64,000 nt of DNA from Corallococcus sp. bb12-1 (GCF_026626765.1 NZ_JAPNJZ010000012.1:77012-141011); one strand, 5' to 3'; shown: positions 8,017 through 64,000, counted from the stretch's first letter. The notes: generated by a model from the letters alone, not told the origin. Numbers and translations: made by a program.

Positions 8017-8135
8017 GGCCTGATGATAAACCTCCGGACCGCCTCTTCAGTCCCGAACGTGCGGCCCACAACACCAGAAGCCTCGAAGAGATTCGCGTTC
8101 CCGGCATTGGATGCGCACGAATTGTCCTCTCCGCC

Positions 8136-27909: not shown

Positions 27910-27982
27910 GCCGGTGTAGCTCAGTCGGTAGAGCAACTGATTTGTAATCAGTAGGTCGCGGGTTCAAATCCCGCCGCCGGCC
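27910..27982 (+). tRNA. tRNA-Thr (anticodon UGU)
   Basis: GCCGGTGTAGCTCAGTCGGTAGAGCAACTGATTTGTAATCAGTAGGTCGCGGGTTCAAATCCCGCCGCCGGCC. Anticodon loop UUUGUAA. Confidence 0.9.
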
Positions 27983-28075
27983 AGGTAGGACGGGCCGCGG
28001 AGTAGGGTCCGGGACACGAAGTCGGTTTGGCAGTTTGTGTGTAGGAAGCGGCCGCAGCACCACAATCGAATATCT

Positions 28076-28159
28076 GGAGGGATACCCAAGCGGCCAAAGG
28101 GAGCAGACTGTAAATCTGCCGGCTCTACGCCTTCGATGGTTCGAATCCATCTCCCTCCA
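28076..28159 (+). tRNA. tRNA-Tyr (anticodon GUA)
   Basis: GGAGGGATACCCAAGCGGCCAAAGGGAGCAGACTGTAAATCTGCC...TCCCTCCA. Long variable arm, anticodon loop CUGUAAA. Confidence 0.9.
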
Positions 28160-28168
28160 CTCTGCAAT

Positions 28169-28244
<76 letters not shown>

Positions 28245-28265
28245 GCCGTTGTAGTGAATCGCCAA

Positions 28266-28341
<76 letters not shown>

Positions 28342-28357
28342 TTTTTCGAGGAGTGTC

Positions 28358-29548
<1,191 letters not shown>

Positions 29549-29592
29549 TCGGCTTCACGCCGACCAGCTTCCACGGGCACTGAGTTGCCGAG

Positions 29593-29628
29593 GGGAGGGC
29601 TGCTTTTGTAGCCTTCCCCTCTCGCATC
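29593..29628 (+). terminator. Hairpin after tuf (attenuator/terminator-like, no U-tract)
   Basis: GAGGGGAGGGCT-GCTTTTGT-AGCCTTCCCCTCTC inverted repeat. Confidence 0.35.
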
Positions 29629-29642
29629 TGGTGAAATGAGCC

Positions 29643-29807
29643 ATGCCGAAGGGTAACCGTTCCATCATCTCGCTCGAATGCACCACGTGCAAAGAGCGGA
29701 ACTACACGACCACGAAGAACAAGCGGAAGAGCCAGGACAAGCTCGAGCTGAGCAAGTTCTGCCCTCGGTGCCGCAAGCATACGGACCACAAGGAAGGCAA
29801 GGTCTAG
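29643..29807 (+). CDS. rpmG: 50S ribosomal protein L33
   Basis: 54 aa, [54 protein letters not shown] (Zn-ribbon CxxC...CxxC). Confidence 0.9.
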
Positions 29808-29829
29808 GTCGCGCGTTCCATGAAGGTTT

Positions 29830-29905
29830 AGGCCAGTAGCTCCAACGGTAGAGCAGCGGTCTCCAAATCCGCGTGTTGGGGGTTCGAATCCCTCCTGGCC
29901 TGCCA
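29830..29905 (+). tRNA. tRNA-Trp (anticodon CCA)
   Basis: AGGCCAGTAGCTCCAACGGTAGAGCAGCGGTCTCCAAATCCGCGTGTTGGGGGTTCGAATCCCTCCTGGCCTGCCA. Anticodon loop CUCCAAA. Confidence 0.88.
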
Positions 29906-29993
29906 GCTTCAGTACAGGGACCCCCGGTACCGAGCGGTGCCGGGGGTCCCTGCCTTTTCGCAGTCCAGCTTCCGCAGTCCCTCGTGAGGCAAA

Positions 29994-30437
29994 ATGGCGA
30001 CGGCAACTGAGGCCAGCCAGCAGGCTAACCGCTCGGGCATCGACCCCAAGCGGCTCGTGGTCATCTTCTATCTCGTCGCCGGCATCGTCCTGGCCCTCTT
30101 CCTGGAGCACGTCTTCGGGTTGCTCTGGAGCCGGTTCGGCTGGAGCGACGTCGAGCTCTTCGAGGGCCTGGGCTGGCGTGTGTCAACCCTCGTGGGCTAC
30201 GTCGTGGCCCTGGGGTTGGTGCTGGCGGCCTACTTCCACCCCCGCACGCACGCCCTGTCCATCGACGTGGCGTCCGAGCTGATGAAGGTCACCTGGCCTA
30301 CCTGGTCGGAGACCCGCGCTTCGACCATGGCCGTGGTCGTCGCCTCGCTCGTGGCGGCCGTCCTCCTCTTCTGCATCGACACCGTCGCCTACAACTTGAT
30401 GGTGGAGTGGCTGCCTGCCCTGTGGGGGAAGCTGTAA
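29994..30437 (+). CDS. secE: Preprotein translocase subunit SecE
   Basis: Membrane protein in the conserved position before nusG. C-terminal TM helix pattern matches SecE. Its stop overlaps the nusG start. Confidence 0.8.
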   Translation: MATATEASQQANRSGIDPKRLVVIFYLVAGIVLALFLEHVFGLLWSRFGWSDVELFEGLGWRVSTLVGYVVALGLVLAAYFHPRTHALSIDVASELMKVTWPTWSETRASTMAVVVASLVAAVLLFCIDTVAYNLMVEWLPALWGKL

Positions 30438-30985
30438 TGGCGAAGAAATGGTTCACGGTCCAGACCTACTCGAACTACGAGAACCAGGCGAAGAAGAACC
30501 TGGAAGAGCAGGTGCGCCTCAAGGGCCTGCAGGACCAGGACTTGCTCGGTGAGATCCTCATCCCCATGGAGCAGGTCGTGGAGATGGTGAACGGCGAGAA
30601 GAAGACCACCCGCCGCAAGCTCTTCCCGGGCTACATCTTCGTCCAGATGGAGCTCAGCGACACTACCCTGCACCTGGTGAAGAACACCTCCAAGGTGACC
30701 GGCTTCCCGGGCGTCGGGCAGAACGAACAGCCCCGCCCCATGTCGGACGCGGAGGTCGCGCGGCTCACCGCCCAGGTGACCGAAGGCGCCCACAAGACCA
30801 AGCCCAAGGTCCAGTTCGAGACGAGCGACACCGTCCGCGTCATTGACGGCCCGTTCGCCAACTTCAACGGCACGGTGGAAGAGGTCAACCCGGAGAAGGG
30901 CCGCGTCCGCGTGCTCGTCAGCATCTTCGGTCGTGCGACCCCCGTGGAACTCGATTTCATGCAGGTGGAGAAGACCACCGGCTAA
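30437..30985 (+). CDS. nusG: Transcription termination/antitermination factor NusG
   Basis: MAKKWFTVQTYSNYENQAKKNLEEQ... NGN domain plus C-terminal KOW (…VRVIDGPFANFNGTVEEV…). Confidence 0.95.
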   Translation: MAKKWFTVQTYSNYENQAKKNLEEQVRLKGLQDQDLLGEILIPMEQVVEMVNGEKKTTRRKLFPGYIFVQMELSDTTLHLVKNTSKVTGFPGVGQNEQPRPMSDAEVARLTAQVTEGAHKTKPKVQFETSDTVRVIDGPFANFNGTVEEVNPEKGRVRVLVSIFGRATPVELDFMQVEKTTG

Positions 30986-31088
30986 TCAGTCTTCCGCGTC
31001 CGGATGACGGGCGCGGATCAACGGGTGGGAGGGTCGTCCCGTCTGGCGACCCGCTGGAACCACCCCATCGAAAGGCAGCAGTCCGCCG
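30986..31088 (+). promoter_or_regulatory. rplKA leader (expected L1 autoregulatory binding region)
   Basis: 103-nt untranslated leader between nusG and rplK. Assigned by conserved operon architecture, not by resolving a structure. Confidence 0.3.
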
Positions 31089-31535
31089 ATGAAGAAGATC
31101 ACAGGTCAGGTCAAGTTGCAGATTCCCGCCGGCAAGGCGAACCCCGCCCCGCCGATTGGTCCCGCCCTCGGTCAGCAGGGCGTGAACATCATGGAGTTCT
31201 GCAAGCAGTTCAATGCCAAGACGCAGGCAGAGGCGAAGGAAGGTCTCATCATCCCGGTGATCATCACCGTGTATGCGGACCGCTCCTTCACCTTCATCAT
31301 GAAGACGCCTCCCGCCGCCATCCTCATCAAGAAGGCCGCGGGTCTCCACACGGAGAAGAAGAAGGGTTCGGGCGCGAAGAAGCCGGGCAAGGAGAAGGTG
31401 GGGCAGATCACCCGGAAGCAGCTCGAGGAGATCGCCAACAAGAAGATCCAGGACACCACCGCCGCGTCCCTCGAAGCCTGCATGAACACCATTGCTGGCA
31501 CCGCGCGCTCCATGGGCATTGAAGTCGTCGGCTAG
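31089..31535 (+). CDS. rplK: 50S ribosomal protein L11
   Basis: [39 protein letters not shown]... Confidence 0.95.
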
Positions 31536-31563
31536 CCCGCCCCCTCTCTCAAGGATTCCTGCC

Positions 31564-32277
31564 ATGGCTACCAATGGAAAGAAGTTCCGCGCGTCCTCCG
31601 AGCTGGTGGACCGCAACAAGCGCTATCCCGTCGCCGAGGGCTTCGCGCTGCTGAAGAAGACGGTCGAGTCGCGCGCGACGAAGTACGACCAGACGGTGGA
31701 TGTCGCCATCAACCTGGGCGTGGACCCGAAGCACGCGGACCAGATGGTCCGCGGCGCCGTGGTGCTCCCGCACGGCACCGGCGCCACCGTGCGCGTGGCC
31801 GTGTTCGCCAAGGGTGAGCGCGCGACCGAGGCGGCCAACGCCGGCGCCGACATCGTGGGCGCGGAGGACCTCCAGAAGCGCATCGAGGAGGGCTTCCTCG
31901 ACTTCGACACCGTCATCGCGACGCCGGACATGATGGGCGTGGTCGGTCGCCTCGGTAAGGTGCTCGGTCCCCGCGGTCTCATGCCCAACCCGAAGGTCGG
32001 CACGGTCACCATGGACGTCGCCAAGGCCATCCGCGACTCCAAGGGCGGTAAGGTCGACTTCCGCGCGGAGAAGGCGGGCATCGTCCACGCGAAGATGGGC
32101 AAGGCCTCCTTCGAGACGGCCAAGCTCGAGGCGAACTTCAACGCGCTGGTGGACCTGGTGATGAAGCTCAAGCCGGCCACCGCCAAGGGCGTGTACCTGC
32201 AGGGCATCGCCATCTCGACGACGATGGGGCCGGGCATCAAGCTCGACACCACCGAAATCCTGGCGCGTCACCGCTAG
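31564..32277 (+). CDS. rplA: 50S ribosomal protein L1
   Basis: [32 protein letters not shown]..., 237 aa. Confidence 0.95.
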
Positions 32278-32289
32278 TTCGCGGCGCCA

Positions 32290-32674
32290 GCCGGGCCGGG
32301 AAGAGTGCGCTCCCTGACGGGGAGCGTCAGTCCTGTCGCCCGCTGAACGTCGGTCGCATAGAAAGTGCTGGATCTTTGCGAAAGCCGGGGGTATAGGCCC
32401 CCGGCTTTTGCAATTGGGGCGCCATGTCGAGAGACACGGTGTTCCGACCTGGTTCATGACAGCAGGGACCTGGAAGGGAAGAAGACGCGTCCGTTGGGAA
32501 CCGGGCAACCGGTCGGGCGTTCATTCCACTTCAGGTTCAAACGGCCGCAAGGTCAGCCCTGCCGAGACTGGAGGTGCGGTGTGGTGCCTCTCGGAGGCTC
32601 CTCCCTCGCTCTGCCACTTTGGCCCAGGCATCACGCCCGACCGTCAGGTCGGGCCATAAAGGAGGTGAGTCAAG
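32290..32674 (+). promoter_or_regulatory. rplJL leader region (L10(L12)4 autoregulatory leader expected)
   Basis: About 385-nt structured untranslated region upstream of rplJ, as in other bacteria. Contains several GC-rich inverted repeats. Functional assignment is by position only. Confidence 0.4.
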
Positions 32675-33196
32675 GTGCTGAAGAGCGAGAAGGAAGTGAT
32701 GATCAAGGAACTCCACGAGAAGTTCGCCCGGACCAAGTCCGCGGTGGTCGCCGAGTTCTCCAAGGTGGATGTGGAGACGGTGACCAAGCTTCGTCGCAAG
32801 TTCCGCGAGGGCAAGGTCGAGTACAAGGTCATCAAGAACACGCTGGCGCGCCGTGCTGCTGAAGGCACGGCCCTCTCCGTGATTTCGGATGACTTCACGG
32901 GTCCCGTGGCCCTGTGCATCAGCTACGACGACGTGGTGGCTCCTGCCAAGATCCTGATGGATTTCATCAAGGACATGGAGACCATCAAGGTCCGCAGCGC
33001 CGTGGTGGACGGCCGCAAGGTCGACGTCAACGGTGTGAAGGCGCTGGCGAAGTTGCCGGGCCTCAACGAGCTCCGAGGGCAGCTGCTCGGAATGCTCAAC
33101 CAGCCTGCTGGCATGCTGGTTCGGACCATCGCGGCCCCCGGGTCGCAGCTCGCGCGGGTCATCCAGGCCAACGCGGACAAGTCGAAGCCCGAGTAA
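32675..33196 (+). CDS. rplJ: 50S ribosomal protein L10
   Basis: GTG start after AAGGAGGTGAG. L10 fold; operon position. Confidence 0.9.
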   Translation: MLKSEKEVMIKELHEKFARTKSAVVAEFSKVDVETVTKLRRKFREGKVEYKVIKNTLARRAAEGTALSVISDDFTGPVALCISYDDVVAPAKILMDFIKDMETIKVRSAVVDGRKVDVNGVKALAKLPGLNELRGQLLGMLNQPAGMLVRTIAAPGSQLARVIQANADKSKPE

Positions 33197-33288
33197 TCGT
33201 CCCGAGAAGTTTTTCTACCGCAACCCCTGCGGCTGGGCTGACCCAATGGGTCGCCGGCCGTTAGTCAACACCAGAAGGACACAGTTCC

Positions 33289-33657
33289 ATGGCTGACCTG
33301 AACAAGATTGCCGAAGACCTCTCCTCCCTGACCATCCTCGAGGCCGCTGAGCTCGTGAAGGCCCTCGAGACCAAGTGGGGCGTTTCCGCCGCGGCCGTTG
33401 CCGTTGCCGCGGGCCCTGCTGCCGCCGCCGCTCCTGTCGAGGAGAAGACGGAGTTCAACGTCATTCTCGCGAACGCGGGCGCGAACAAGATCAACGTCAT
33501 CAAGGAGGTACGCGCCATCACCGGCCTGGGCCTGAAGGAGGCTAAGGACCTGGTCGAGGGCGCGCCCAAGACGGTCAAGGAAGGCGTCAACAAGGACGAC
33601 GCCAAGAAGTTCAAGGACCAGCTCGTCGCGGCTGGCGCCACCGTCGAAGTGAAGTAG
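33289..33657 (+). CDS. rplL: 50S ribosomal protein L7/L12
   Basis: [27 protein letters not shown]... Ala-rich hinge. C-terminal [12 protein letters not shown]...VEVK. Confidence 0.97.
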
Positions 33658-33667
33658 TTCTGACAGG

Positions 33668-33705
33668 GGCTGTCCTGTTCTTCCGGGAAATCCCGGACAG
33701 CCTCC
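33668..33705 (+). terminator. rplL-rpoB intergenic attenuator hairpin
   Basis: GGCTGTCC-TGTTCTTCCGGGAAATCCCGGA-CAGCC nested stem-loop, consistent with the well-known partial terminator between rplL and rpoB. Confidence 0.5.
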
Positions 33706-33837
33706 TGACTGGATGAGCAGGCCGGCGTCCCCTTTGCTGGGGCGCCGGCTTTGCCCATTTGACATTTGCCAAATTTCCCGGCGCCGCCGCGCGTTACTGA
33801 AGTTTGCCCCGCCCGAGCAGCCGTCCCCGGAGACCGA

Positions 33838-38064
<4,227 letters not shown>

Positions 38065-38196
38065 GCCTTTTTAGCAGCCGGTGCGCCCGCCTGACCGGTC
38101 GGCATCGCTTCCTCGTGGAGGGAGCGGCCGACCGGGTGCAGGGCGGGGGCCCGAAACGTTTGGCGCCTTGAGCGCTCATAAGTTTTCGGAGGCAAC

Positions 38197-42405
<4,209 letters not shown>

Positions 42406-50823: not shown

Positions 50824-53058
50824 ATGAGCATGCAGGGTGGCGCCGGAGAAGATCCCGACCGGGGGCGGCGCATCGGAAAATACGAGATCCTCACCCGCCT
50901 CTCGATGGGAGGGATGGCGGAGCTGTTCCTCGCGTTCACCTCCGGCCCCGGTGGCTTCCGCAAGTTCGTCGCGGTGAAGCAGATCCTCCCCGACATCAAG
51001 AAGGACGACCAGTTCGTCAAGATGTTCCTCGACGAGGCGCGCATCACCGCCGCCTTCTCGCACGCGAACATCGGACAGGTGTTCGACCTGGGGGAGGAGG
51101 ACGGCGAGCTGTACCTCGCCATGGAGTTCCTGCCCGGCCAGAACCTGGAGCAGGTGGTGAAGATGGCGGCCAAGCGCGACTACGCGCTGCCGCTGGGCTT
51201 CAGCGCCCGCGTGGTGCGCGACACCTGCCTGGGCCTGCACTACGCCCACCACTTCATGGATCCGTCGGGCCGCCCGGTGGCGGTGGTGCACCGGGACGTG
51301 TCTCCGAAGAACGTGATGATCACCTACGACGGCGTCGTGAAGGTGATCGACTTCGGCATCGCCAAGGCGCGTGGCAAGCTGGGCCGTACGCAGGTGGGCA
51401 CCGTGAAGGGGACCAGTGGCTACATGTCCCCGGAGCAGGTGCGCGACAAGGGGCTGGACGGCCGCAGCGACCAGTTCTCCACGGGCGTGATGCTGCACGA
51501 GCTGATGGTCGGGCAGCGCCTGTTCAACGCGCCGGGCGAGGCCGCCGTGATGATGCAGATCGTGGACGGGGAGATTCCCGTGCCGCGCTCGCTCAACGCG
51601 GCGATCCCCGAGGCCCTGGAAACCGTGGTGCTCAAGTCCCTGTCGCGGGATGCCGCGCAGCGCTTCGGCACCTGCCGCGAGATGGCGCGCGCCATCGAAG
51701 CCTCGCTGGGCTCCGAGCTGTACGACGAAGACCAGATGACCGCCGTCATGGGCGAGCTCTTCGAGGAGAAGCGCCAGAAGACGCGCACCCTCCTGGAACT
51801 GGCCAGCCGCGCCGAGGACGCCCGCGTCAGCGAGGCCGCCGGGGCGCTGCAGGTGGAGGAGGGCGGCGACACGGCCACCGCGCGGGTGCAGTCGCCGCAC
51901 GCGGGGGCCTCGGCTGAGAACGCCGCGCCGTCGTTCCGACCCACGCCCGTCCGGCGCACGAGCGCCGAGCCGACGACCCCGCCGCGTGCGGGTGCGACCC
52001 CGCGTCCCGCCACCGAGGCCGCGGCCCCGCGCAGCGACACGCCTCCGATGACGCCGCGAGCGCAGCGGCCCGCCGACGCCGCGTCCGCTCGCCCGATCCG
52101 TCCTCCTGCCGACGCCGCCCGGGCGAACCGGCCCCGTCCCGTCGCCCGCCCGGAGGCTTCCGAGGCCCGGGCCACGCCTCCCGACGACGCGCTGCTGGAT
52201 CCGCCCAGCGACCTCCAGACCCAGCGCTTCCGCACCCGGCCCGGGCGCTCCGGTGCGGGGCCCGCGCGGCCCTCCCGTTCGGTAGATGAGCCGGCGGAGA
52301 CGCCCCCGGCTCGCGAGCGTTCCGGCTGGCTGGGCAAGGTGGTGCTGCTCCTCGTCCTGGGCGGCGTGGGCTATCTGGCGACGCTCGAACCGGTGCGACG
52401 GCTGTTCATGCCGGCGTACGAGTCCGCCCGCCTGTGGGTGAAGGCGGAGCTGGATCCGGCCCCGAACGTGGACCCCGCGAAGGATGGGACCTGGCCGCCG
52501 AAGCCCTCCGGGCCTCCGCCGGGTTTCGTGCAGAAGACCGAGCCCGAGAAGGCACCCGAAGTCGAAGCGCCTCCTCCCGAACCGGTCGTGGAGGCTCCGC
52601 CTCCCGAAGAGCCCAAGACGCCCGTCGCCAAGGGCGGACGCAAGCCGAAGGTGACCGCTCCGGCGGAGAAGATTGTCGCGGCGAAGACGGAGACCCCGGC
52701 CCCGAAGCCCGCGCCGGAGCCCTCGCAGCGCGCGCCGGAGCCCGTCACCACCGTCACGCAGACGCCGGAGGTCGCGGAGGTGCTGGACACGAGCACCGCC
52801 AAGGGCGCCAAGAAGGCCGGCCTGGGCTGGCTGACGCTCTACACCGTGCCGAAGAACGCGGCCGTGTTCGACGGTTCAACGCAGCTGGGCACCTCTCCGC
52901 TGATCAAGCTGGCGACCCCCGTGGGCACCTACCGCCTGCGCGTGGTGGATCCCCAGGACCCGGGAGGGACGAGCAAGCTGTTGTCCGTTCCCATCCGTCC
53001 GGGCGAAGTGACCCGGTTGCAGATTCGACTGGCCGACCTCCCGCCCTACACGGAGTGA
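50824..53058 (+). CDS. Serine/threonine protein kinase (Hanks type) with Pro/Ala-rich linker and C-terminal PEGA domain
   Basis: VAVK, HRDVSPKN, DFGIAK and GTSGYMSPE motifs. A low-complexity linker of roughly 300 aa. C-terminal …LTLYTVPKNAAVFDGSTQLGTSPL…GTYRLRVV. Confidence 0.9.
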   Translation: MSMQGGAGEDPDRGRRIGKYEILTRLSMGGMAELFLAFTSGPGGFRKFVAVKQILPDIKKDDQFVKMFLDEARITAAFSHANIGQVFDLGEEDGELYLAMEFLPGQNLEQVVKMAAKRDYALPLGFSARVVRDTCLGLHYAHHFMDPSGRPVAVVHRDVSPKNVMITYDGVVKVIDFGIAKARGKLGRTQVGTVKGTSGYMSPEQVRDKGLDGRSDQFSTGVMLHELMVGQRLFNAPGEAAVMMQIVDGEIPVPRSLNAAIPEALETVVLKSLSRDAAQRFGTCREMARAIEASLGSELYDEDQMTAVMGELFEEKRQKTRTLLELASRAEDARVSEAAGALQVEEGGDTATARVQSPHAGASAENAAPSFRPTPVRRTSAEPTTPPRAGATPRPATEAAAPRSDTPPMTPRAQRPADAASARPIRPPADAARANRPRPVARPEASEARATPPDDALLDPPSDLQTQRFRTRPGRSGAGPARPSRSVDEPAETPPARERSGWLGKVVLLLVLGGVGYLATLEPVRRLFMPAYESARLWVKAELDPAPNVDPAKDGTWPPKPSGPPPGFVQKTEPEKAPEVEAPPPEPVVEAPPPEEPKTPVAKGGRKPKVTAPAEKIVAAKTETPAPKPAPEPSQRAPEPVTTVTQTPEVAEVLDTSTAKGAKKAGLGWLTLYTVPKNAAVFDGSTQLGTSPLIKLATPVGTYRLRVVDPQDPGGTSKLLSVPIRPGEVTRLQIRLADLPPYTE

Positions 53059-54124: not shown

Positions 54125-54135
<11 letters not shown>

Positions 54136-56233
54136 TCTGCTCCTGGAAATCGGTGCCGAGGAGATCCCGGCGTCGTTCATCGTGCCCGCGCTGGACGACT
54201 TGAAGCGCGTGCTCACCGAGCGCATGGCCGACGCCCGCCTGAAGCACGGCGAGGTGCGCACCTTCGGCACGCCGCGCCGGCTCGCGGTGTGGGTGCGCGA
54301 CGTGGCGGACGCGGGCGAGGACGTGACGAAGGAGGTGCTGGGGCCCAGCGCCAAGGCCGCCTTCGACGCGCAGGGCAAGGCGACCAAGGCCGCGGAGAAG
54401 TTCGCGGAGAGCCTCAAACTGTCGGTGGACGCGCTGGGCCGCACGACGACGCCCAAGGGCGAATACGTGTCCGCGCGCGTGGAGGAGAAGGGCCGTCCGG
54501 CGGACGCCATCCTCCAGGACGCGCTGCACTCCGCGGTGCACGGCATCAACTTCAAGAAGTCCATGCGCTGGGGCGACGTGGACATGTCCTTCGCGCGCCC
54601 GGTGCAGTGGCTGCTGGCGCTCCTGGGCGACACGGAGCTGCCGGTGGTGTTCGGCGACGTGAAGAGCGGGCGGACCACCTACGGCCACCGCTTTCTTTCG
54701 CCCGGCCCCATCACGCTGAAGGCGCCCGCGGACTACGAGGCGACGCTGGAGAAGGCGCACGTGCTGGCGGACATCGGCAAGCGCCGCGCGTCGCTCGTGC
54801 AGAAGGTGACCGCCGCGGCGAAGGCGGCGGGTGGCCAGCTCCTGGAGGACGAGGGCCTGGTGGACCAGGTGACGAACCTGGTGGAGCTGCCGAGCCCCGT
54901 GGTGGGCCGCTTCGACGAGCGCCACCTGGACCTGCCGCCGGAGGTGCTGGTGCAGGAGATGAAGAGCCACCAGCGCTACTTCTCGCTGGTGGACGCTCAG
55001 GGCAAGCTCCTGCCGCGCTTCATCGCCGTGTCCAACACGCCGGTGCGCGACGAGCAGTTGTCGCTGCGCGGCTACGAGCGCGTGCTACGCGCGCGGCTCG
55101 CGGACGGGCGCTTCTTCTTCGACGAGGACCGCAAGACGCCGCTGGGCGACCGCGTGGAGAAGCTGGGCCGCGTGGTGTGGCAGAACCAGTTGGGCACGTA
55201 CCTGGAGAAGGTGGAGCGCTTCCGCTCGCTGGCGGGCTGGCTCGCGCAGGCCACGGACAGGGCAGGGGAGGCGGCCACGGTGGAGCGCGCCGCCACGCTG
55301 TCCAAGGCGGACCTCGTCACCGGCATGGTGGGCGAGTTCCCGGAGCTCCAGGGCGTGATGGGCCGCGAGTATGCGAAGGCCGGCGGCGAGCCGGACGCGG
55401 TGGCCCTGGCCATCTCCGAGCACTACCTGCCCCGTGGTGCCGAGGACGCGCTGCCGACGCAGGACGCGGGCGCGCTCATCGGCCTCGCGGACCGGCTGGA
55501 CTCGCTGTGCGGCATCTTCGCCATCGGCAAGGCCCCGTCGGGCGCGGCGGATCCGTTCGCGCTGCGCCGGGCGTGCCTGGCCATCATCCGCATCGTGCTG
55601 GGACGGGGCTACCGCTTCAGCCTGTCGGCCGCGGTGGATGAGGCCCTGGGCCTGCTCGCGCCGAAGCTGGCCAACGTGAAGCGCAAGCCGGGAGAGGCCG
55701 CGCCGCGCGAACAGGTGCTGGAGTTCTTCCGCGGCCGTCTCAAGGCGCTGTGGGGAGAAGAGCACCGCACGGACGTGGTGGAGGCGGTGCTGGCCGTGGG
55801 CTTCGACGACCTCGTGGCGGCGAAGAAGCGCCTGGAGGCCCTGAGCCTGCTCGTGGGCCATGCGGACTTCCAGCCGCTGGCGGCCGCCTTCAAGCGCGTG
55901 GTCAACATCGTGGAGAAGCAGGGCAAGGACGTGGCGGGCGGGCAGACCAACCCGCAGCGCTTCACCGACGAGCCGGAGAAGAACCTCCACACCGCCTTTA
56001 CCCAGGCGCGTGACAAGGTGGGCGTGCACGTGCGCGCGGACGACTTCGCCGGGGCCCTGCGCGAAATCACCGGCCTGAAGCCCGCCGTGGACACCTTCTT
56101 CGACAAGGTGATGGTGATGGCCGAGGACAAGGACCTGCGGGAAAACCGCATCCGGTTCCTCACGGAGATCGGCGCCCTGTTCAACCAGGTGGCGGACTTC
56201 TCCAAAATCCAGGCGGAAGTCGCCGCCGCCTGA
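54125..56233 (+). CDS. glyS: Glycine--tRNA ligase beta subunit
   Basis: 702 aa, GTG start overlapping glyQ by 11 nt. Colinear with GlyS. Confidence 0.9.
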
Positions 56234-56395
56234 AGCTTTACCGCCGGAGCGTGCCCGTTCCCTCGCCAAGGGAGCGGCACGCGTTTCCGGGCTTTGCGGC
56301 GTGGGTGGGTGTCGTCGGGAGGGCGAACGGGAATAGCGACAGCCCTATTCAGTTGCCCGGGGTAGGGCCCCGTTCCTACACTCCGCCCCCCTCTG

Positions 56396-57931
56396 ATGCG
56401 CCTCCCTTTCCTGACCCCCGCGCTGTTGCTCCTCGCGGCGTGTTCGATCGAATCTGAACCGAACCCGCCCCCGTCCACCCGCTTCGTGTACCCCAGCGGG
56501 GTGGCGTTCTGGCGCCCACCCGCGGCTGGCGGTCCCTCGGCGAGCAACGGCTACCTCTTCGTCGCGAACGCGAACTTCGACAACTGCTACGACTCCGGTT
56601 CGGTGGTGGCGCTCAACCTGGACGCGCTGAGCACGCAGGCGGATGGCCAGTCCGTCCCGGTGCCCAGGCTGGGGACCGCCGTGCCAGCAAGCCCGCTTGT
56701 CTTCGAGTCCCTGTCTGCGTCGGCGGACTCGCTCGTGCAGATCCGCAGCTTCGCGGGTGACATGGGGATGTGGGTCAACCCGGCCAGCGGACTGCCGCGC
56801 CTGTTCGTGCCTTCGCGCGCGGAGGGCAACAACCTGTACGCGGTGGACGTCAGCCTGTCGGCGGATGGCGCGCCGGTGCTCAACTGCGTGCAGGGCGGCG
56901 TGGACTGCCAGACGGGGGCGCTGTCGCTCACGGACGACATCCCGGCGTCGCTCCAGGACTCGGGCCGTCCGGGCCTGCCCCGCGCGCCGTCACCCATTGG
57001 CGTGACGGTGGATGACGCGAACGGCACGCTGTACGTGACGCACTCGGAGGCGGCGGATTCGCCCGCGAACTCCAGCACCAACTTCGAGAACTATCTGGTC
57101 ACCCTGAAGGCGGAGAACCCCACGCGCGACACGCTGGGCTTCATCCCGCTGTCGCCGGAGGGCTACATCTACGGCGGCTCGGATTCGACGACGGTGGGGA
57201 CCGGTTACCTCTTCGTGTCGGGCCGCAACTTCGTGGCGGGCGACAGCGGCACGGTGGGCGCGAACTTCGTCCTGCGGCTGGTGGACAAGAACGTGCCCGA
57301 GCGCATCCTGGAGCCCCGCCTGTCCCTGGCCTACCGCATCCGCGAGGCGCGCGCGGTCCGGGTGGTGTCCCGGCCGGTGACGGCGGCGGAGCTCGCGGTC
57401 CGTCCCTACTTCGTGCGCGAGCGGCTGTACGTGCTGGCGCGGGGCCCGGACACGATGCTCACGATCGACTTCGAATACGACGCACCGCCGGGCGAGCAGT
57501 CCACGGACCCGTCGTTCCGGGTCATCTCCGCGGTGCCCATGCCCGACGGCGTCAGCGACATGCAGCTCATCCGCCGGCAGGGCGCGCCGACCAGCACCGA
57601 CACCAACATCCTCGCGGTGACGAGCACCGGCGACAGCGCGGTGTCCCTCTACGACGAGGCGCTCGGCCAGGTCGTCGTCCAGGTGCCGCTCGTCAATTCG
57701 CAGAACCAGACCAGCAACCCGTCGCAGGCCTTCGCGGTGACGGTGGACAACCCGGCCGGCGTGAACGCGGCGCGGCTGTTCGTGACCAACTTCGGAGACG
57801 GGCAGGTGGCCATCGTGGACATCCCCGACCTCACCCGTCCGCAGGACGCGCGGCTGGTGGCACGACTCGGCACGCAGCAGCAGCGGGATCCGAACCAGGG
57901 CACCAGCGTGTGCCAGGAGAACCAACCTTGA
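56396..57931 (+). CDS. Hypothetical lipoprotein, beta-propeller-like repeats
   Basis: Lipobox LLLAACS. Repeated blade-like segments (YLFVANANFD…GSVVALNL; LYAVDVS; LYVTHSE; LFVTNFGDGQVAIVDI). Confidence 0.65.
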   Translation: MRLPFLTPALLLLAACSIESEPNPPPSTRFVYPSGVAFWRPPAAGGPSASNGYLFVANANFDNCYDSGSVVALNLDALSTQADGQSVPVPRLGTAVPASPLVFESLSASADSLVQIRSFAGDMGMWVNPASGLPRLFVPSRAEGNNLYAVDVSLSADGAPVLNCVQGGVDCQTGALSLTDDIPASLQDSGRPGLPRAPSPIGVTVDDANGTLYVTHSEAADSPANSSTNFENYLVTLKAENPTRDTLGFIPLSPEGYIYGGSDSTTVGTGYLFVSGRNFVAGDSGTVGANFVLRLVDKNVPERILEPRLSLAYRIREARAVRVVSRPVTAAELAVRPYFVRERLYVLARGPDTMLTIDFEYDAPPGEQSTDPSFRVISAVPMPDGVSDMQLIRRQGAPTSTDTNILAVTSTGDSAVSLYDEALGQVVVQVPLVNSQNQTSNPSQAFAVTVDNPAGVNAARLFVTNFGDGQVAIVDIPDLTRPQDARLVARLGTQQQRDPNQGTSVCQENQP

Positions 57932-60087
57932 AGCGCGGCATCCCTGCTGCCCTGTTGCTGAGCGCCGCGAGTCTCACGAGCGCCTGCTCCGACACCACCT
58001 CCACGGCGGGCGCCGCGGGCCTGTCGGGCACGTACGACGTGGTGCTCTCCAACCAGCTCGTCTTCGTCACCTCCCAGGACCGGGACGAGCTGCGCGTGTT
58101 GGACCTCACGCGCTCGCCCCGCGAATACATCCCCGCGCCCAACCCGCTGGAGCCCCTGGCCATCCCCGTCGTCGCGCGGCCCGACTCGCTCACGCGCGAC
58201 GTGGGCTACGACGCCGAGGGCAACGACGTGTCCGGTCCGTACATCTACGCCCGCAGCTCCGGCGGGCGGAGCATCTCCGTGGTGGCCGCCGACCGCGCGC
58301 GCCTCAACGAGGTGACGCGGCTGTCCACCGGCCAGCTCATCACCGCCTTCGCCGCGCACGCCCCGGTGGCCGAGGGCGCGCCGAGCGTCCTGTACTACGC
58401 GCTCCAGACCCGCCCGGAGGCCGCCGAAGCGCTCTGCGGTCCCTTCGGGGGCGGGGTGGTGATGCGCCAGGACCTGCCGGCCCCGGACGCCTTCGACGCC
58501 GCGGCCCTGCCGGCCGCGCTGCCCGTCTTCTGCCTGCAACCGGCGGACACGGTGCTGTCCATGATCACGCTGCCCGCGCGGGCGGGCGTGACGGACTCGC
58601 TGGTCATCGCCATCCGCAACGTGACGGGCACCAGCCGGCTCGTGCGCGCTGTCGCGGATGGCGCTTCGGTGGAGGTCGCCTACAAGCGTCCGCGCCCGGC
58701 GCCGTACACGGTGCCGACGTACACGGACCTGGTGGACATCCCGGCGCGGCTCGTCACCACCCATCCGGCCTACGGGCCGACGGCCACCCGGGTGGCCCAG
58801 GGCCGGTACGTATACGTGGTGCTCGACGAGCTCACGTGCGTCTCCGCGGATTGCGAGGGCGTCATCGCGCTCGACAACGGGCCGGATCCCCTGGTGCCGT
58901 CCGCGACGCCGGTGCTCGCGCGCGACGTCACCGGCGCGCCCATGCTGACGCTGAAGCCGTCCGGCGGCCTGCCCACCGGGCTCACCCTGCGCGCGGGCCT
59001 GGAGGTGCGCGAGTTCCTGTCGGACAGCATCGCGTACACGTCCCCCATCCCGCTGTTGGGCATCGTGCCGTCGTCCAACGGACAGGTCACCCTGTTCCGC
59101 GCCGACGAGCGCCGCGCGTTCAACCTGGACCGGGATCCCATCACGGGCCCGCTGCCTGCCACGGTGACGGTGGAGCTGCGCGACGGCTCGGAGCTCATCC
59201 GGCCGGACCAGGTCCGGAGCATCGAAGTCAATCAGCCGGGGTGTCCGCAGCGCGCGGACGTGGCCAATGCGGACGCCTTCCTGTGTGACGGGACGCTGCC
59301 CTCCGGGACCTACCGCTTCGTCTTCCAGGGCATCCTGCCGGGCCTCGTCAATCTGGCGCGCGACCTGAACGTGGAGGATCCGCCCTTCCTGGTGGAGACG
59401 TCGCTGGTCGCGGCCCGCACCGTGGTTCCGGGCGACTCCCTCGTGCTGGCGAACAACGTGGGGGCCTGCGAGCAGACCGTCAAGGTGCTTCGCCTGGAGG
59501 ACCTGGGGGATGGTCGCACCCAGCTCTTCCCAGACCTGGGGGACGCGGCCACCGTCAGTGCCCTGGAGACGTGCGCCACGTATCCGTTCTTCTCCGTACG
59601 CGCCGGCCCGACCGTGAAGCCCTTCGTCCTCTACTCGGGCCTGGAGACCAGCGACTCCTACGTGCAGCGATTGAACGTCAACGAGATCTACACGGTGTCC
59701 AGCTTCCTGGATTATTACTACCACGCTGATGGCTTCGACCTGGGCCTGGACCCGCCCAAGTCGCCCACGACCTTCGTGCCCGCGCCGCTGTCGCTCACCC
59801 TGACGGCGAAGTTTGGAGGGGCCGATCGGCTCGGCGTCGGCGACCGCTACGTGGTGACGCTGCTGCCGCGCTTCCGGCGCTTCATCTTCGGCGTGGACAC
59901 CGGGTCCGGCAGCTCGCTGACCAACCTGGGGGCCTACACCCTGCCTGGCTCCGTGGTGGCCACGGACGTGGGTGGCTCCAGTCTGGCCTACATCGCGTAT
60001 CCTTCCGCGGACGGCGTGCTCCAGGTGGCCCTGGAGCAGATCAGCGACAACGCGGACAACCTCCAGTACCTCCGGGCCTTCCAGTAA
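57910..60087 (+). CDS. Hypothetical lipoprotein, beta-propeller-like, paralog-like neighbour
   Basis: GTG start overlapping the upstream stop by 22 nt (a TTG at 57928 is an alternative). Lipobox LTSACS. Segments LVFVTSQDRDELRVLDL and YVYVVLDEL resemble propeller blades. 725 aa. Confidence 0.6.
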   Translation: MPGEPTLKRGIPAALLLSAASLTSACSDTTSTAGAAGLSGTYDVVLSNQLVFVTSQDRDELRVLDLTRSPREYIPAPNPLEPLAIPVVARPDSLTRDVGYDAEGNDVSGPYIYARSSGGRSISVVAADRARLNEVTRLSTGQLITAFAAHAPVAEGAPSVLYYALQTRPEAAEALCGPFGGGVVMRQDLPAPDAFDAAALPAALPVFCLQPADTVLSMITLPARAGVTDSLVIAIRNVTGTSRLVRAVADGASVEVAYKRPRPAPYTVPTYTDLVDIPARLVTTHPAYGPTATRVAQGRYVYVVLDELTCVSADCEGVIALDNGPDPLVPSATPVLARDVTGAPMLTLKPSGGLPTGLTLRAGLEVREFLSDSIAYTSPIPLLGIVPSSNGQVTLFRADERRAFNLDRDPITGPLPATVTVELRDGSELIRPDQVRSIEVNQPGCPQRADVANADAFLCDGTLPSGTYRFVFQGILPGLVNLARDLNVEDPPFLVETSLVAARTVVPGDSLVLANNVGACEQTVKVLRLEDLGDGRTQLFPDLGDAATVSALETCATYPFFSVRAGPTVKPFVLYSGLETSDSYVQRLNVNEIYTVSSFLDYYYHADGFDLGLDPPKSPTTFVPAPLSLTLTAKFGGADRLGVGDRYVVTLLPRFRRFIFGVDTGSGSSLTNLGAYTLPGSVVATDVGGSSLAYIAYPSADGVLQVALEQISDNADNLQYLRAFQ

Positions 60088-60150
60088 CTGGGCGGGCCCG
60101 AACGGCTCTGCTATCGTTCCCCACGTTCAGCATTTCCCGAGCCAAGACCG

Positions 60151-61011
60151 ATGATCGATCAGAACTCCCGTCCCGCACGCAAGGTCGGCATCGCCGAGCA
60201 CCTGTGGGAGACGTACGAAGAGATGGCCCAGCAGATGGGGTCGGATCGCGACGCGCTGATCAACCAGGCGCTCTTCATGTTCGCGCGCCTCAACGGCTTC
60301 ATCGACGTGAAGGTGAAGGCCGAGCCCTCCGTGGCGGCGGTGCCTGCCGCCACGCCGACCCCCCGTCCAGCCTCCCCGCCGCCCGCGGCCGCCGCGTCCA
60401 AGGGCGCGCCGCCGGTGCTCGCGCCCGCGCGCGCCGAACCCGCCCGGGCCGCCCCGCGCAACGTGGAGGAGCGTCCGTCCTCCAACGGCCTGGACAATGA
60501 TCCGGTGCGCCGCGAGGTGGCCGAGCGCGTCCTGGAGACGGCCGCCGAACTGGAGCGGCTCATCAAGGGCAAGAATGATCCGCCGCCTCCGTCCGCCGAC
60601 GACATGATCGAGGAGGAGGACGAGGATCCCCTGCCCGACCAGGAGGATCCGCCGCTCGAGGACGAGCTGGAGGACGAGCCCCCCGACGAGGCCGAGGAGG
60701 AGCCGCCGGAGGAGGTCGACGAGGAGGAGGGCGCGTCGCTCTACCTGGTCACCGAATCCGGTGAGCAGGAGAAGATCATCAAGGACCGCTACGTCATCGG
60801 CCGCGGCAAGCACTGCGACTTCGTCATCAACTCCGGCAAGGTGTCGCGCGAGCACGCCGTCATCGCCCGCGACGGCGGCGAGTTCTACATCGAGGACCTC
60901 GGCTCCTCGAACGGGACCTGGTTCAACAAGCAGCGCATCAAGCGCCGCAAGGTCGAGGACGGGGACGAGTACTTCATCTGCAGCGAGAAGATCCGCCTCG
61001 TCATCCACTGA
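60151..61011 (+). CDS. FHA-domain protein (N-terminal small helical domain, acidic linker, C-terminal FHA)
   Basis: C-terminal FHA signature YVIGRGKHCDFVINSGKVSREHAVIARDGGEFYIEDLGSSNGTWFN. Central D/E/P-rich linker. Confidence 0.8.
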   Translation: MIDQNSRPARKVGIAEHLWETYEEMAQQMGSDRDALINQALFMFARLNGFIDVKVKAEPSVAAVPAATPTPRPASPPPAAAASKGAPPVLAPARAEPARAAPRNVEERPSSNGLDNDPVRREVAERVLETAAELERLIKGKNDPPPPSADDMIEEEDEDPLPDQEDPPLEDELEDEPPDEAEEEPPEEVDEEEGASLYLVTESGEQEKIIKDRYVIGRGKHCDFVINSGKVSREHAVIARDGGEFYIEDLGSSNGTWFNKQRIKRRKVEDGDEYFICSEKIRLVIH

Positions 61012-61114
61012 TGACGCAGTGCCCCCCGGTTCGAGGGTCGTGTTCAGCATTTGACGGGCTTGGGGCCTCCCTGGTTTGATGGGGGTCGCCTGCCCGCCTT
61101 GGGACAGGTGCCGA

Positions 61115-61651
61115 ATGACACCTGCTCAATCCGTGCTGTGGACGATTCTGGGAGTGGCCCTGGTGCTTGCGGTGGTGACCGACGTGCTGCGCCGGCTCAT
61201 CCCCAACGTCGTGACCTATCCGCTCATCGTGCTGGGGCTCGGGGTGCGCGGGTGGGCGGAAGGGGTGGGCGGGCTGGAGTCGGGGCTTTTGAGTGGGGTG
61301 CTCGCGGGCACGGGACTGGCGCTGCTGCTGGTCCCCGGCGCGCTGCGCGGGCGCATGGGGTGGGGTGACGTCAAGCTGATGGCGGGCGTGGGCTGTGTGC
61401 TGGGGTTCCCGACGGTGCTCGCGGCGGCGGCCTTCATCTCGTTGGTGGGAGCGCTCCAGGCGGTCGTCACGCTGCTATGGCAGGGTGCCGTCTGGGACAC
61501 GCTGGCGGCGGTGGCCCGTCGCTGGGCGGTGCGGGCGAAATGGATGCGCGAGGAAACCTCGCCCTCGCCCGTGCGACACATCCCCTACGGCGTCTCCATC
61601 GCGCTCGGGACTTTCTGGGCCATGTGGTGGCAGCAACAACATCTGGGATAG
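61115..61651 (+). CDS. A24-family prepilin peptidase (CpaA/TadV-like)
   Basis: Polytopic membrane protein with the two catalytic Asp contexts (VVTDVLRRLIPN and GWGDVKLMAG). Confidence 0.8.
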   Translation: MTPAQSVLWTILGVALVLAVVTDVLRRLIPNVVTYPLIVLGLGVRGWAEGVGGLESGLLSGVLAGTGLALLLVPGALRGRMGWGDVKLMAGVGCVLGFPTVLAAAAFISLVGALQAVVTLLWQGAVWDTLAAVARRWAVRAKWMREETSPSPVRHIPYGVSIALGTFWAMWWQQQHLG

Positions 61652-61697: not shown

Positions 61698-63146
61698 ATG
61701 TCCACTCGCTTCACGCACGCCGTAGCGCTTGGCGCCCTCGTCACCCTGGTGGCCAGTGCCCCCGCCCTGGCCCAGGAGGGCAGCACCGTCAGCCTCGGGG
61801 TGGGTACTCAGAAGGTGCTCACCATCCCCGGCCTGAGCCGCGTCGCGCTGGGCGACCCGTCCATCGCCGAGGTGAAGACGCTGGGCACCGGCCAGCTGCT
61901 CGTCACCGGCCAGACGGAAGGCAAGACGACGCTGCTCGTCTGGAAGTCCTCGGGTCAGCGCATCAGCTACCTGGTGACGGTCCGCAAGCAGGACCCCAAC
62001 GAGGTCATCTCCGAAATCAAGCGCCTGCTGGGCGAAATCGAAGGCGTGTCCGTGCGCATGGTGGGTGACCGCATCTACCTGGACGGTCAGGCCTACACCA
62101 CGCAGGACGCGGACCGCATCGAGCAGGTGGTGAGCCTCTATCCGAACGTGAAGTCGTTCGTGAAGATCGCCCCCAACGCCAAGAAGCTGGTGGCCCAGAA
62201 CCTGAACGCGGCCTTCCAGAAGGCGGGCCTGAAGAACGTGCAGGCCAACGTGGTGGGCGCGACCATCTTCCTGGAGGGCTCCGTGGAGAGCCAGCAGGAC
62301 CTGCAGAAGGCGGAGCTCATCACCAAGGCCATCGGCGAGAAGGTGGAGAACCTGCTCGTCGTCGGCATCAAGCGGATGATCCTCTCCGAGGTGCAGTTCG
62401 TTGAAATCCGCCGCAACAGCCGCGACCGCTACGGCATCAAGTACCCCACCGACATCACGGGCGGCCTCACCGGCACGTTGAACCTCACCAAGGCGCTCCT
62501 GCCGTCGGGTGACGCGGTCTCCGACCTCATCCTGGGCGCGACCGGTTCGTCGGAGCTGAGCATCGGCTTCCAGGCCAACGACGGTTACGGCCGCCTGCTG
62601 GCGCAGCCCAAGCTGGTGTGCGCGAGCGGTGAGAAGGCGGAGTTCCTCGCCGGTGGCGAGGTGCCCATCCCGCTCATCACCAACACGCAGTTCACGGTGG
62701 AGTACAAGCCGTACGGCGTCATCCTGAACATCCGCCCCACCGCGGACCGCAACGGCAACATCCAGACGGAAGTGGAGGCCGAGGCCTCCGAAATCGACAC
62801 GTCCGTGTCGGTGTCCTTCGGTGGTTCGTCCGCCATCCCCGGCTTCCGCACCCGCAAGGTGAAGACGAACGTCACCGTGCGCCACGGAGAGACGATCGTG
62901 CTGTCGGGCGTGTTCAGCCACGACGAGCAGAAGGCCGTCGCGAAGCTGCCGGGCCTGGGCAACATCCCCATCGTGGGCGAGCTGTTCAAGAACCGCGCGT
63001 TCGACTCCACCAAGCGCGAACTGGTGATCTTCGTCACCCCGCGCATCGTGAACCCGGACTCGGACAAGGTCCGCAGCATCATCGAGGACGTGAAGACCCG
63101 CTACAAGCAGGCCCGGTCCGAAGTGAACTTCAACATCTTCGACTGA
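61698..63146 (+). CDS. Secretin of a Tad/Flp-type apparatus (CpaC/RcpA-like)
   Basis: Signal peptide. N-terminal CpaC-type pilus-formation domain. C-terminal secretin domain (…GVILNIRPTADRNGNI…; …VLSGVFSHDEQKAVAKLPGLGNIPIVGELFKNRAFDSTKRELVIFVTPRIV). Confidence 0.85.
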   Translation: MSTRFTHAVALGALVTLVASAPALAQEGSTVSLGVGTQKVLTIPGLSRVALGDPSIAEVKTLGTGQLLVTGQTEGKTTLLVWKSSGQRISYLVTVRKQDPNEVISEIKRLLGEIEGVSVRMVGDRIYLDGQAYTTQDADRIEQVVSLYPNVKSFVKIAPNAKKLVAQNLNAAFQKAGLKNVQANVVGATIFLEGSVESQQDLQKAELITKAIGEKVENLLVVGIKRMILSEVQFVEIRRNSRDRYGIKYPTDITGGLTGTLNLTKALLPSGDAVSDLILGATGSSELSIGFQANDGYGRLLAQPKLVCASGEKAEFLAGGEVPIPLITNTQFTVEYKPYGVILNIRPTADRNGNIQTEVEAEASEIDTSVSVSFGGSSAIPGFRTRKVKTNVTVRHGETIVLSGVFSHDEQKAVAKLPGLGNIPIVGELFKNRAFDSTKRELVIFVTPRIVNPDSDKVRSIIEDVKTRYKQARSEVNFNIFD

Positions 63147-63313: not shown

Positions 63314-64000
63314 ATGTTTCTCATCACCCTGGCGGAGAAGGGCGGCGGGACGGAGCAGCGGGAATACCCCAAGAACGAGGTCACCATTGGCCGGCTCGCC
63401 GGCAATGACATCGTCCTCGGCAAGGGGAATGTCTCCAAGTACCACTCCCGCATCGTCGAGAAGGACGGACGCTTCATCATCGTGGACATGAAGTCCACGA
63501 ACGGCACCTTCGTGAACGGCAAGAAGATTGCCGGGCCCATGGTGCTGAAGCCCACGGATCAGGTCTCCATCGGGGACTACATCCTCAACGTCGAAGCGCT
63601 GGAGGACGCGCCGCAGGACGACGCGCAGGGCGAAGAGGCGTACGACGAGGAGCAGGGCGAGGAGGCCTACGAGGAGGAAGAGGCCTACGAGGAGGAGGAG
63701 CCCTACGAAGAGGAGGAGGCTCCGGCTCCCGCCGCGCCCAGCCGCATGCCCGCGTCCATGGCCGCGGCCATGGCGAAGAACAAGAAGAAGGTGGACCCGA
63801 AGCTGGAGCGCTACTCGCGCCTCCAGAAGGAGATCCACGACCGGCTCATCGAGTACCTGGACCTGCGTCGCATGGACATGGACCGGCTCGGGGACGAGGA
63901 GCTGTGGCGCCGCACCGAGAAGGCCATCCGCGACATCATCGACCAGATGGAAGCGGACGGAGAGCTTCCCACGGACGTGGACCGCGAAGAGCTGCTCACC
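63314..64000 (+). CDS. Partial CDS (continues past window end): FHA domain fused to the N-terminal region of a CpaF/TadA-type secretion ATPase
   Basis: N-terminal FHA (…VTIGRLAGNDIVLGKGNVSKYHSRIVEKDGRFIIVDMKSTNGTFVNG…). Acidic EEAYEEE repeats. Then LERYSRLQKEIHDRLIEYLDLRRMDMDRL…, which is typical of the CpaF N-terminal helical domain. No stop within the window. Confidence 0.75.
   Translation, partial: MFLITLAEKGGGTEQREYPKNEVTIGRLAGNDIVLGKGNVSKYHSRIVEKDGRFIIVDMKSTNGTFVNGKKIAGPMVLKPTDQVSIGDYILNVEALEDAPQDDAQGEEAYDEEQGEEAYEEEEAYEEEEPYEEEEAPAPAAPSRMPASMAAAMAKNKKKVDPKLERYSRLQKEIHDRLIEYLDLRRMDMDRLGDEELWRRTEKAIRDIIDQMEADGELPTDVDREELLT
63628..63722 (+). repeat. Short in-frame tandem repeat (GAGGAGG/CCTACGAGGAGGA units) encoding an acidic E/A/Y-rich linker
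   Basis: GAGGAGGCCTACGAGGAGGAAGAGGCCTACGAGGAGGAGGAGCCCTACGAAGAGGAGGAG: imperfect repeats of about 18 nt, visible by eye. Confidence 0.6.

Follow-up and report, generated by a model that had tools for sequence, protein, structure and literature searches.

A coupled pair of predicted propeller lipoproteins in the housekeeping backbone beside the kil cassette of myxobacteria

How Myxococcus senses contact with its prey and builds the Tad-like Kil apparatus at that site is an open question, and those genes of the kil clusters that have yet to be characterised are obvious candidates for a part in it. Two such genes, for lipoproteins that we call LipA and LipB, lie between glyS and an FHA-domain gene in a 64,000-nucleotide (nt) stretch of Corallococcus sp. 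bb12-1 (NZ_JAPNJZ010000012.1:77012-141011; hereafter the window, from whose first letter positions are counted unless another record is named). An earlier reading of the window, made from the sequence alone, had suggested that the pair could be accessory components of the Tad-like apparatus. Comparison of orthologous loci shows that LipA, LipB and the FHA gene constitute a conserved three-gene unit in a housekeeping backbone, glyQS ... polA, and that kilA/C/F/D appear to be a separable, discrete cassette placed between the FHA gene and polA. This shifts the boundary of the cluster: since the unit is kept in loci that have no kil cassette and its expression resembles that of a housekeeping gene, the pair is not to be assumed to be part of Kil. 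The reading that we favour, at about even confidence, is that LipA and LipB are a clade-specific, general component of the cell envelope linked to growth, and not a dedicated Kil part.

The LipA-LipB-FHA unit and the kil cassette

The two open reading frames (ORFs) exist as the sequence-only reading had described them, on one strand between glyS and the FHA gene, with 511 and (from a GTG) 725 amino acids (aa). With more than 100 orthologues and a ratio of nonsynonymous to synonymous substitution rates (dN/dS) of 0.30-0.60, both are real genes. In their final form they are:

56396..57931, + strand: LipA, 511-aa lipoprotein (Cys16) with a predicted seven-bladed, YncE-like beta-propeller; orthologue of MXAN_3102
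57928..60087, + strand: LipB, 719-aa lipoprotein (Cys20) with a predicted seven-bladed propeller and ~400 further all-beta residues; orthologue of MXAN_3103

Neighbouring genes were mapped by tblastn over 130 loci plus the window, within 10-kb flanks, and only informative loci were counted. The FHA gene lies directly 3' of LipB in all 107 informative loci and is the sole invariant neighbour; glyS lies directly 5' of LipA in 109 of 110. The kilA/C/F/D cassette, scored by the presence of kilC downstream of the FHA gene, is found in 75 of 79 loci. The corresponding genes of the window are:

54125..56233, + strand: glyS, glycyl-tRNA synthetase beta subunit, the upstream neighbour (tRNA_synt_2f found on orthologues)
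60151..61011, + strand: FHA-domain gene (Pfam FHA, E 8.8e-20), orthologue of MXAN_3104
61076..61651, + strand: kilA, prepilin peptidase
61698..63146, + strand: kilC, secretin
63314 to beyond the window's end at 64000, + strand: kilF, FHA-ATPase

Strict co-occurrence with the kil genes is thus not found. The four exceptions (L081, L082, L085 and L120) read glyQ-glyS-LipA-LipB-FHA-polA; the lipoprotein genes are intact and the lipoboxes kept in the first three, L120 having been checked by ORF length only. All four were read at the locus of the pair and its 10-kb flanks. In a neighbour-joining tree of LipA, L081 and L085 group with the kil-bearing L083 and L087, and L082 is placed elsewhere. These separate positions imply that the kil cassette was lost or moved at least twice, or that it was acquired when some lineages had already diverged; in both cases LipA-LipB-FHA is maintained without an adjacent kil cassette. 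Co-conservation with the Tad-like cluster, the check put forward in the sequence-only reading, therefore holds as the usual state and fails in four loci from at least two lineages. That reading had also named wide occurrence of the pair in genomes without the cluster, or its separate transcription, as evidence against the proposal, and one of its refuting observations has been borne out in part. Among the 75 kil-bearing loci, 14 lack kilA between the FHA gene and kilC (L062, L064, L069, L098-L100, L103, L105-L107, L109, L114, L118, L119), and in L081 polA overlaps the FHA gene by 4 nt.

The upstream side varies more. L087 reads kinase-LipA-LipB-FHA-kilA-kilC-kilF-kilD-polA and so has the pair and kil without glyQS. 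In L013 (Corallococcus sp. RDP092CA) an insertion sequence-type transposase gene (426 aa, 7022..8302 of that record) separates glyS from LipA; the LipA start and the 160-odd nt 5' of it keep their usual position there. In L057, a metagenome-assembled genome (MAG) of Myxococcota, a peroxiredoxin-like gene (8093..8575, - strand) stands in the same interval, opposite in direction to the pair. In several divergent lineages glyS overlaps LipA by 4 nt and there is no spacer. Because spacer, overlap and inserted genes all occur, LipA and LipB are not bound to a single upstream arrangement.

In the window, the glyS-LipA spacer measures 162 nt and holds a hairpin and a promoter-like site, and the LipB-FHA spacer, whose length of 63 nt had been given correctly in the sequence-only reading, holds a second such site:

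56249..56282, + strand: hairpin after glyS, -34.4 kcal/mol, z = -2.4; GC-rich and terminator-like, without a T-run in the window
56331..56350, + strand: perfect dyad GAATAG-N8-CTATTC just 5' of the promoter-like site; candidate regulator binding site
56353..56382, + strand: promoter-like site of LipA (TTGCCC, 18 nt, TACACT), its end 13 nt 5' of the LipA ATG
60088..60117, + strand: promoter-like site of the LipB-FHA spacer (CTGGGC, 18 nt, extended -10 TGcTATCGT)

The hairpin, noticed already in the sequence-only reading, is kept in Corallococcus with two compensatory pairs, and in the spacer alignment its stem is followed by TTTTT in L002; lacking a T-run in the window, it is not called by the terminator scan. 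The GGGAAT..(T)TTC pattern of the dyad region is conserved from Corallococcus to Archangium. The LipA promoter-like site is near-invariant over 21 aligned loci with a spacer of 110-190 nt. The motif of the second site, CTGnTATCGT/TATCTT, is conserved in 29 of 31 aligned LipB-FHA spacers, L068 and L078 having a weak version, and three of the four kil-less loci retain it in recognisable form. Neither motif is called by a consensus promoter scan, and both rest on conservation across species; on this footing nearly all lineages appear to have a separate promoter for the FHA gene. A sigma-54 promoter of LipA was considered and rejected, no conserved GG being seen at -24 when the spacer alignment was inspected by eye, and an Rfam search of the glyS-LipA spacer returned no RNA family.

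Expression of the orthologues was assessed from M. xanthus values of fragments per kilobase per million (FPKM) in PMC9548883 Table S1B, a set of 10 samples made up of duplicates at time 0 and, both in the presence of Sinorhizobium prey and in its absence, at 2 h and 6 h. MXAN_3102 follows glyQ (r = 0.98) and rplL (r = 0.98) and not kilC (r = -0.07); MXAN_3103 correlates likewise with glyQ (r = 0.95) and not with kilC (r = 0.00). In the presence of prey, values read by eye are at most ~1.3-fold higher at 6 h and no higher at 2 h. A 2026 DiscOperon preprint (RNA-seq plus synteny, unreviewed) predicts that glyQ-glyS-3102-3103 form one operon outside the kil system, that the FHA gene is monocistronic and that kilA-C-F-D-polA form another operon. 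Coming from one ten-sample study and one unreviewed preprint, the grouping with glyQ rather than kilC is suggestive. The separate promoter-like site, the near-zero correlation with kilC in this one dataset and the preprint all speak against co-transcription or co-regulation with the kil genes. The operon link to the Tad-like cluster that the sequence-only reading had proposed to check by RNA-seq is accordingly not supported by these data, the orthologues tracking glyQ and not kilC.

Translation starts, orthology and rate of evolution

The longest-ORF version of LipB (57910..60087, + strand; 725 aa) begins 22 nt inside LipA. In nearly all orthologous loci, however, LipB starts at an NTGA that overlaps the LipA stop by 4 nt, and the product has a canonical MKR... 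signal peptide. For this reason the start was reassigned to the TTG at 57928, which overlaps the LipA stop by 4 nt (TTGA) and leaves a protein of 719 aa. A possible ribosome binding site precedes it:

57916..57919, + strand: Shine-Dalgarno-like GGAG, 8 nt 5' of the LipB TTG, within the 3' end of LipA; the start position is kept in orthologues

The 22-nt overlap of the sequence-only reading is thus most likely an artefact of choosing the longest ORF, the likely overlap being 4 nt; the translational coupling which that reading had proposed is strengthened by the conservation of the shorter junction. The same correction probably applies to MXAN_3103-type genes. In RefSeq, MXAN_RS15040 carries the start with the 22-nt overlap, and the start of MXAN_RS15035 is set at the end of glyS, ~140 nt 5' of the conserved lipoprotein start (MXAN_RS15035, 3634148..3635764, and MXAN_RS15040, 3635743..3637827, of NC_008095.1; PMC9548883 Table S1B). 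Both starts look to be placed too far upstream.

Sequence comparison identifies LipA and LipB as the orthologues of M. xanthus MXAN_3102 (MXAN_RS15035) and MXAN_3103 (MXAN_RS15040). Identity to the Myxococcus proteins is 47% for LipA and 39% for LipB; the order glyQ-glyS-pair-FHA-kilA-kilC-kilF, the lipoboxes and the 4-nt junction are all the same, and we see no essential difference between the two loci. The pair is therefore already on record for Myxococcus, as uncharacterised genes: kil gene cluster 1 of Seef et al. (MXAN_3102-3108) includes them as "two predicted OM lipoproteins" to which no function is assigned and which bear propeller signatures of the cytochrome cd1-like and YWTD types, next to MXAN_3104 (the FHA gene) and MXAN_3105-3107 (kilA, kilC and kilF) (PMC8460266). 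No mutant or function of MXAN_3102, MXAN_3103 or MXAN_3104 is reported in the literature that we searched.

The closest genome is that of Corallococcus terminator, with 96-100% identity over the block. A scan with the LipB alignment, one genome per species, gave 78 loci; the isolates among them are all of Myxococcaceae/Archangiaceae type, although the record of L023 bears the title Comamonas sp. KCTC 72670, and the remainder are MAGs, of which a few have no label finer than Proteobacteria or Pseudomonadota. Another 43 loci came from a scan of metagenomes. An exhaustive search with a LipB hidden Markov model (HMM) gave 381 clusters (50% identity), with 205 falling below 1e-30; the named members are all myxobacterial, and a word-index profile search for distant relatives of LipA added no members.

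No other part of the block evolves as fast as the pair, as the median identities to the window show:

Myxococcus/Pyxidicoccus: LipA 47%, LipB 39%, FHA 67%, KilA 71%, KilC 87%, glyS 86%, glyQ 92%
most divergent lineages: LipA 33%, LipB 29%, KilC 79%

Among Corallococcus genomes, LipA has a dN/dS of 0.30-0.47 and LipB one of 0.35-0.60; the values of glyQ and glyS are 0.03-0.22. Selection on the pair is purifying but relaxed. Conservation of LipB is highest at residues 40-140 and near the C-terminus.

Membrane location and predicted folds

LipA begins with MRLPFLTPALLLLAAC, the codon of Cys16 lying at 56441-56443. LipB begins with MKRGIPAALLLSAASLTSAC, its lipobox stretch being ...LLLSAASLTSAC and its Cys codon lying at 57985-57987. 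Each N-terminus combines a positive N-region, a hydrophobic stretch and a lipobox Cys within ~25 residues, in agreement with the lipobox claim of the sequence-only reading, and most of the orthologous loci that were scanned show the same signal features. The residue at +2, proposed there as a check on sorting, is Ser in both window proteins. Lys at +2, the inner-membrane retention signal of M. xanthus (PMC3222651), occurs in none of the orthologues listed in the scan of junctions and N-termini, and the +7 Ala matrix signal is not present in the window proteins. The orthologue MXAN3103 was found by mass spectrometry, with 3 peptides, in purified outer membrane (PMC3222651). Because +2 Lys is absent and an orthologue occurs in the outer-membrane fraction, LipA and LipB probably sit in the outer membrane, a placement drawn from sequence for the window proteins themselves. 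Homologue alignments show near-invariant cysteines in both proteins, which fits an extracytoplasmic location.

AlphaFold2, run on alignments of 38 and 52 homologues, returned confident models (LipA, pLDDT 87.6 and pTM 0.89; LipB, pLDDT 85.3 and pTM 0.84) that predict a seven-bladed propeller in each protein and so agree with the propeller likeness suggested earlier. Foldseek's best match of LipB is BtuG (8blw_B, 8bmz_B) at E 1.1e-6, with a TMq of only 0.21 and 11% identity. Multi-propeller proteins align to LipB over 800 columns, at high root-mean-square deviation, which makes a second propeller in LipB possible; comparison of the N- and C-terminal halves of LipB detected no internal duplication. 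Profile-profile comparison of LipA with LipB gave no sign of paralogy outside the signal peptide and the first blade.

At the level of sequence families, neither protein has a Pfam match at E <= 1 or an NCBIfam match at E <= 0.1 (LipA alone has sub-threshold NCBIfam matches, at E 0.11 and 0.93), so that membership in the YncE/YVTN-type propellers is not established at these cut-offs. Profile searches against PDB sequences found no relatives of either protein. The absence of catalytic motifs, asserted by eye in the sequence-only reading, is consistent with these results, as no recognisable enzyme family matches LipA or LipB.

Several known propellers invite comparison. YncE of E. coli (PDB 3vgz), a soluble periplasmic protein, and Lp49 of Leptospira (3bws) are bacterial seven-bladed propellers of the YVTN type; identity to the pair is only 13-15%, and LipA has ~190 and LipB ~400 residues beyond theirs. 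BtuG resembles the pair in being a lipid-anchored seven-bladed propeller; it sits on the Bacteroides surface, binds ligand and docks on an outer-membrane channel, capping the BtuB transporter. No TonB-dependent transporter adjoins LipA and LipB and the resemblance is that of propellers in general, but BtuG is a useful model of how a propeller lipoprotein could serve a secretin. BamB, the propeller lipoprotein of the BAM complex, is likewise an outer-membrane-anchored, non-enzymatic scaffold expressed with growth. It has eight blades of another repeat type, is not among the top fold matches listed, and no link of the pair to BAM genes was seen.

Possible roles of the pair

In the reading that we favour, a ribosome ending LipA at its TGA would restart on LipB at the overlapping TTG, giving a fixed ratio of the two proteins. 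Both would be exported, cleaved and lipidated at the lipobox Cys and, neither having the +2 Lys of Myxococcus inner-membrane retention, sorted to the outer membrane. There the two short-tethered propellers, most likely joined in a hetero-complex, would offer a protein or glycan partner a platform to bind, without enzymatic activity of their own. Expression would be linked to growth, through the pair's own promoter in Corallococcus or through coupling to glyS in other lineages, and the FHA and kil genes would use a separate promoter. We infer the hetero-complex, the non-enzymatic binding role, the promoter assignments and the anchoring of the window proteins.

Several observations weigh against this reading. 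Adjacency to kil is the rule, and the members of the family met so far are all of Myxococcaceae/Archangiaceae type or unclassified Myxococcota MAGs, the tree of Seef et al. showing Kil within the Myxococcales only for Myxococcus, Stigmatella and Cystobacter (PMC8460266). Kil is described as having neither a TadD-type pilotin nor RcpB, and a secretin without an N0 domain (PMC8460266), which leaves a vacancy for an outer-membrane lipoprotein. The kil-less status of the four lineages refers to the locus of the pair, and the expression argument consists of the ten samples and the preprint described above. The promoter-like sites are motifs, and a hetero-complex without enzymatic activity is what we infer for the proteins.

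Some of these observations favour a rival close to the proposal of the sequence-only reading, in which the pair would be a dedicated outer-membrane accessory of Kil, either acting on the short, N0-less KilC secretin as its pilotin or docking factor, or sensing prey contact at the outer membrane and so triggering assembly. In that case LipA and LipB would supply a predatory nanomachine with its missing sensor or docking factor at the outer membrane. The pair stands on the same strand beside FHA-kilA-kilC-kilF-kilD in nearly all informative loci, and L087 keeps the kinase, the pair, the FHA gene and kil where glyQS is gone; the family members found so far are all myxobacterial, from the group in which the tree of Seef et al. 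shows Kil, and MXAN3103 localises to the outer membrane. KilD foci form upstream of the functional apparatus, for which, with TadD, RcpB and TadG lacking, a sensor yet to be identified is expected (PMC8460266). A dN/dS of 0.3-0.6 would also fit an exposed protein facing its interaction partners. Secretin pilotins and the outer-membrane accessories of Tad systems (TadD, Tgl/PilF, RcpB) are lipoproteins of the outer membrane, as LipA and LipB probably are, and their genes too adjoin those of secretins. The known pilotins, however, are small and of TPR or alpha/beta type; as large, predicted all-beta propellers, LipA and LipB have neither homology to these in the family scans nor the small TPR-type fold of TadD, PilF or Tgl. 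Pfam and NCBIfam scans matched the pair to no Tad or Kil component (TadD, RcpB, TadG, CpaB, pilins and others). The published mapping of Kil homologues to Bdellovibrio, Caulobacter and Bradymonas does not include MXAN_3102 or MXAN_3103, the only entry being an unspecified proteome-BLAST match of MXAN_3102 in Bradymonas (PMC8460266 Supplementary file 2). It is conceivable that the pair substitutes functionally for TadD or RcpB; yet the contrast between KilC, 79-96% conserved, and LipA/LipB, at 29-47%, would be odd for tight structural partners. The idea is further weakened in that four loci keep LipA-LipB-FHA without the cassette, the pair being shown intact in three, that the FHA gene is preceded by a separate conserved promoter-like motif, and that the orthologues are expressed with glyQ, without co-variation with kilC and with little response to prey, the preprint also leaving them outside the kil system. 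The functional tie to the Tad-like apparatus is thus not supported as it was put forward, and we regard a dedicated Kil role as rather unlikely.

The invariance of the FHA gene raises another prospect, which we rate as improbable: LipA-LipB, the FHA gene and, in many genomes, an upstream PEGA-domain Ser/Thr kinase could form a signalling module from envelope to cytoplasm. The logic would be that of TagQ/TagR-PpkA-Fha1 threonine phosphorylation in Pseudomonas, an outer-membrane pair sensing a periplasmic or surface cue and a phospho-signal reaching FHA proteins. The kinase in question is:

50824..53058 of the window, and 6382..8493 of L087: Ser/Thr kinase with a Pro/Ala-rich linker, a hydrophobic segment and PEGA at E 0.022 (below the Pfam cut-off)

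This kinase, of transmembrane type with a weak C-terminal PEGA match, is encoded 5' of glyQ in the window and many other loci and directly 5' of LipA in L087. It is absent from the upstream side of those kil-less loci whose sequence reaches that far, and also from that of a number of kil-bearing ones. The N-terminal 50-60 residues of the FHA protein (60151..60330) are ~90% identical across genera, the remainder 55-70%; they weakly resemble a CopG ribbon-helix-helix (RHH) repressor, at an E of 0.19 that is below significance. The FHA protein may, on this resemblance, be a DNA-binding FHA regulator, and the perfect dyad 5' of the LipA promoter-like site would suit one. An FHA-based contact-signalling cascade has moreover been suggested by Seef et al. 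(PMC8460266). In its most explicit form, to which we give an equally small likelihood, the propellers would detect prey contact or envelope perturbation and act through the PEGA kinase on FHA proteins (the possible RHH-FHA regulator, KilF and KilD) to set Kil assembly going; on this view the kil cassette would serve as an output, plugged into or removed from a sensing unit older than itself. Against a signalling module of either form stand the many loci without the kinase, the lack of TagQ/TagR homology and of any phosphatase in what was searched, and the FHA protein's want of a predicted membrane segment, by which any link to the outer membrane must be indirect; gene order alone, besides, cannot show signalling. 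That one or both proteins are periplasmic enzymes of propeller fold, of the lactonase, lyase or hydrolase type, seems to us very improbable: no enzyme HMM matches them even at E = 1, and a high dN/dS with low overall conservation is unusual for an enzyme.

Elsewhere in the window (27910..29902 and 28000..42400), a tRNA gene cluster precedes a 396-aa ORF at 28358..29548 and two ORFs of ~1,400 aa at 33766..38064 and 38197..42405. By size and position the three ORFs are putative tuf, rpoB and rpoC. The GC content of the 28000..42400 region is 0.62-0.66, compared with ~0.70 in the rest of the window.

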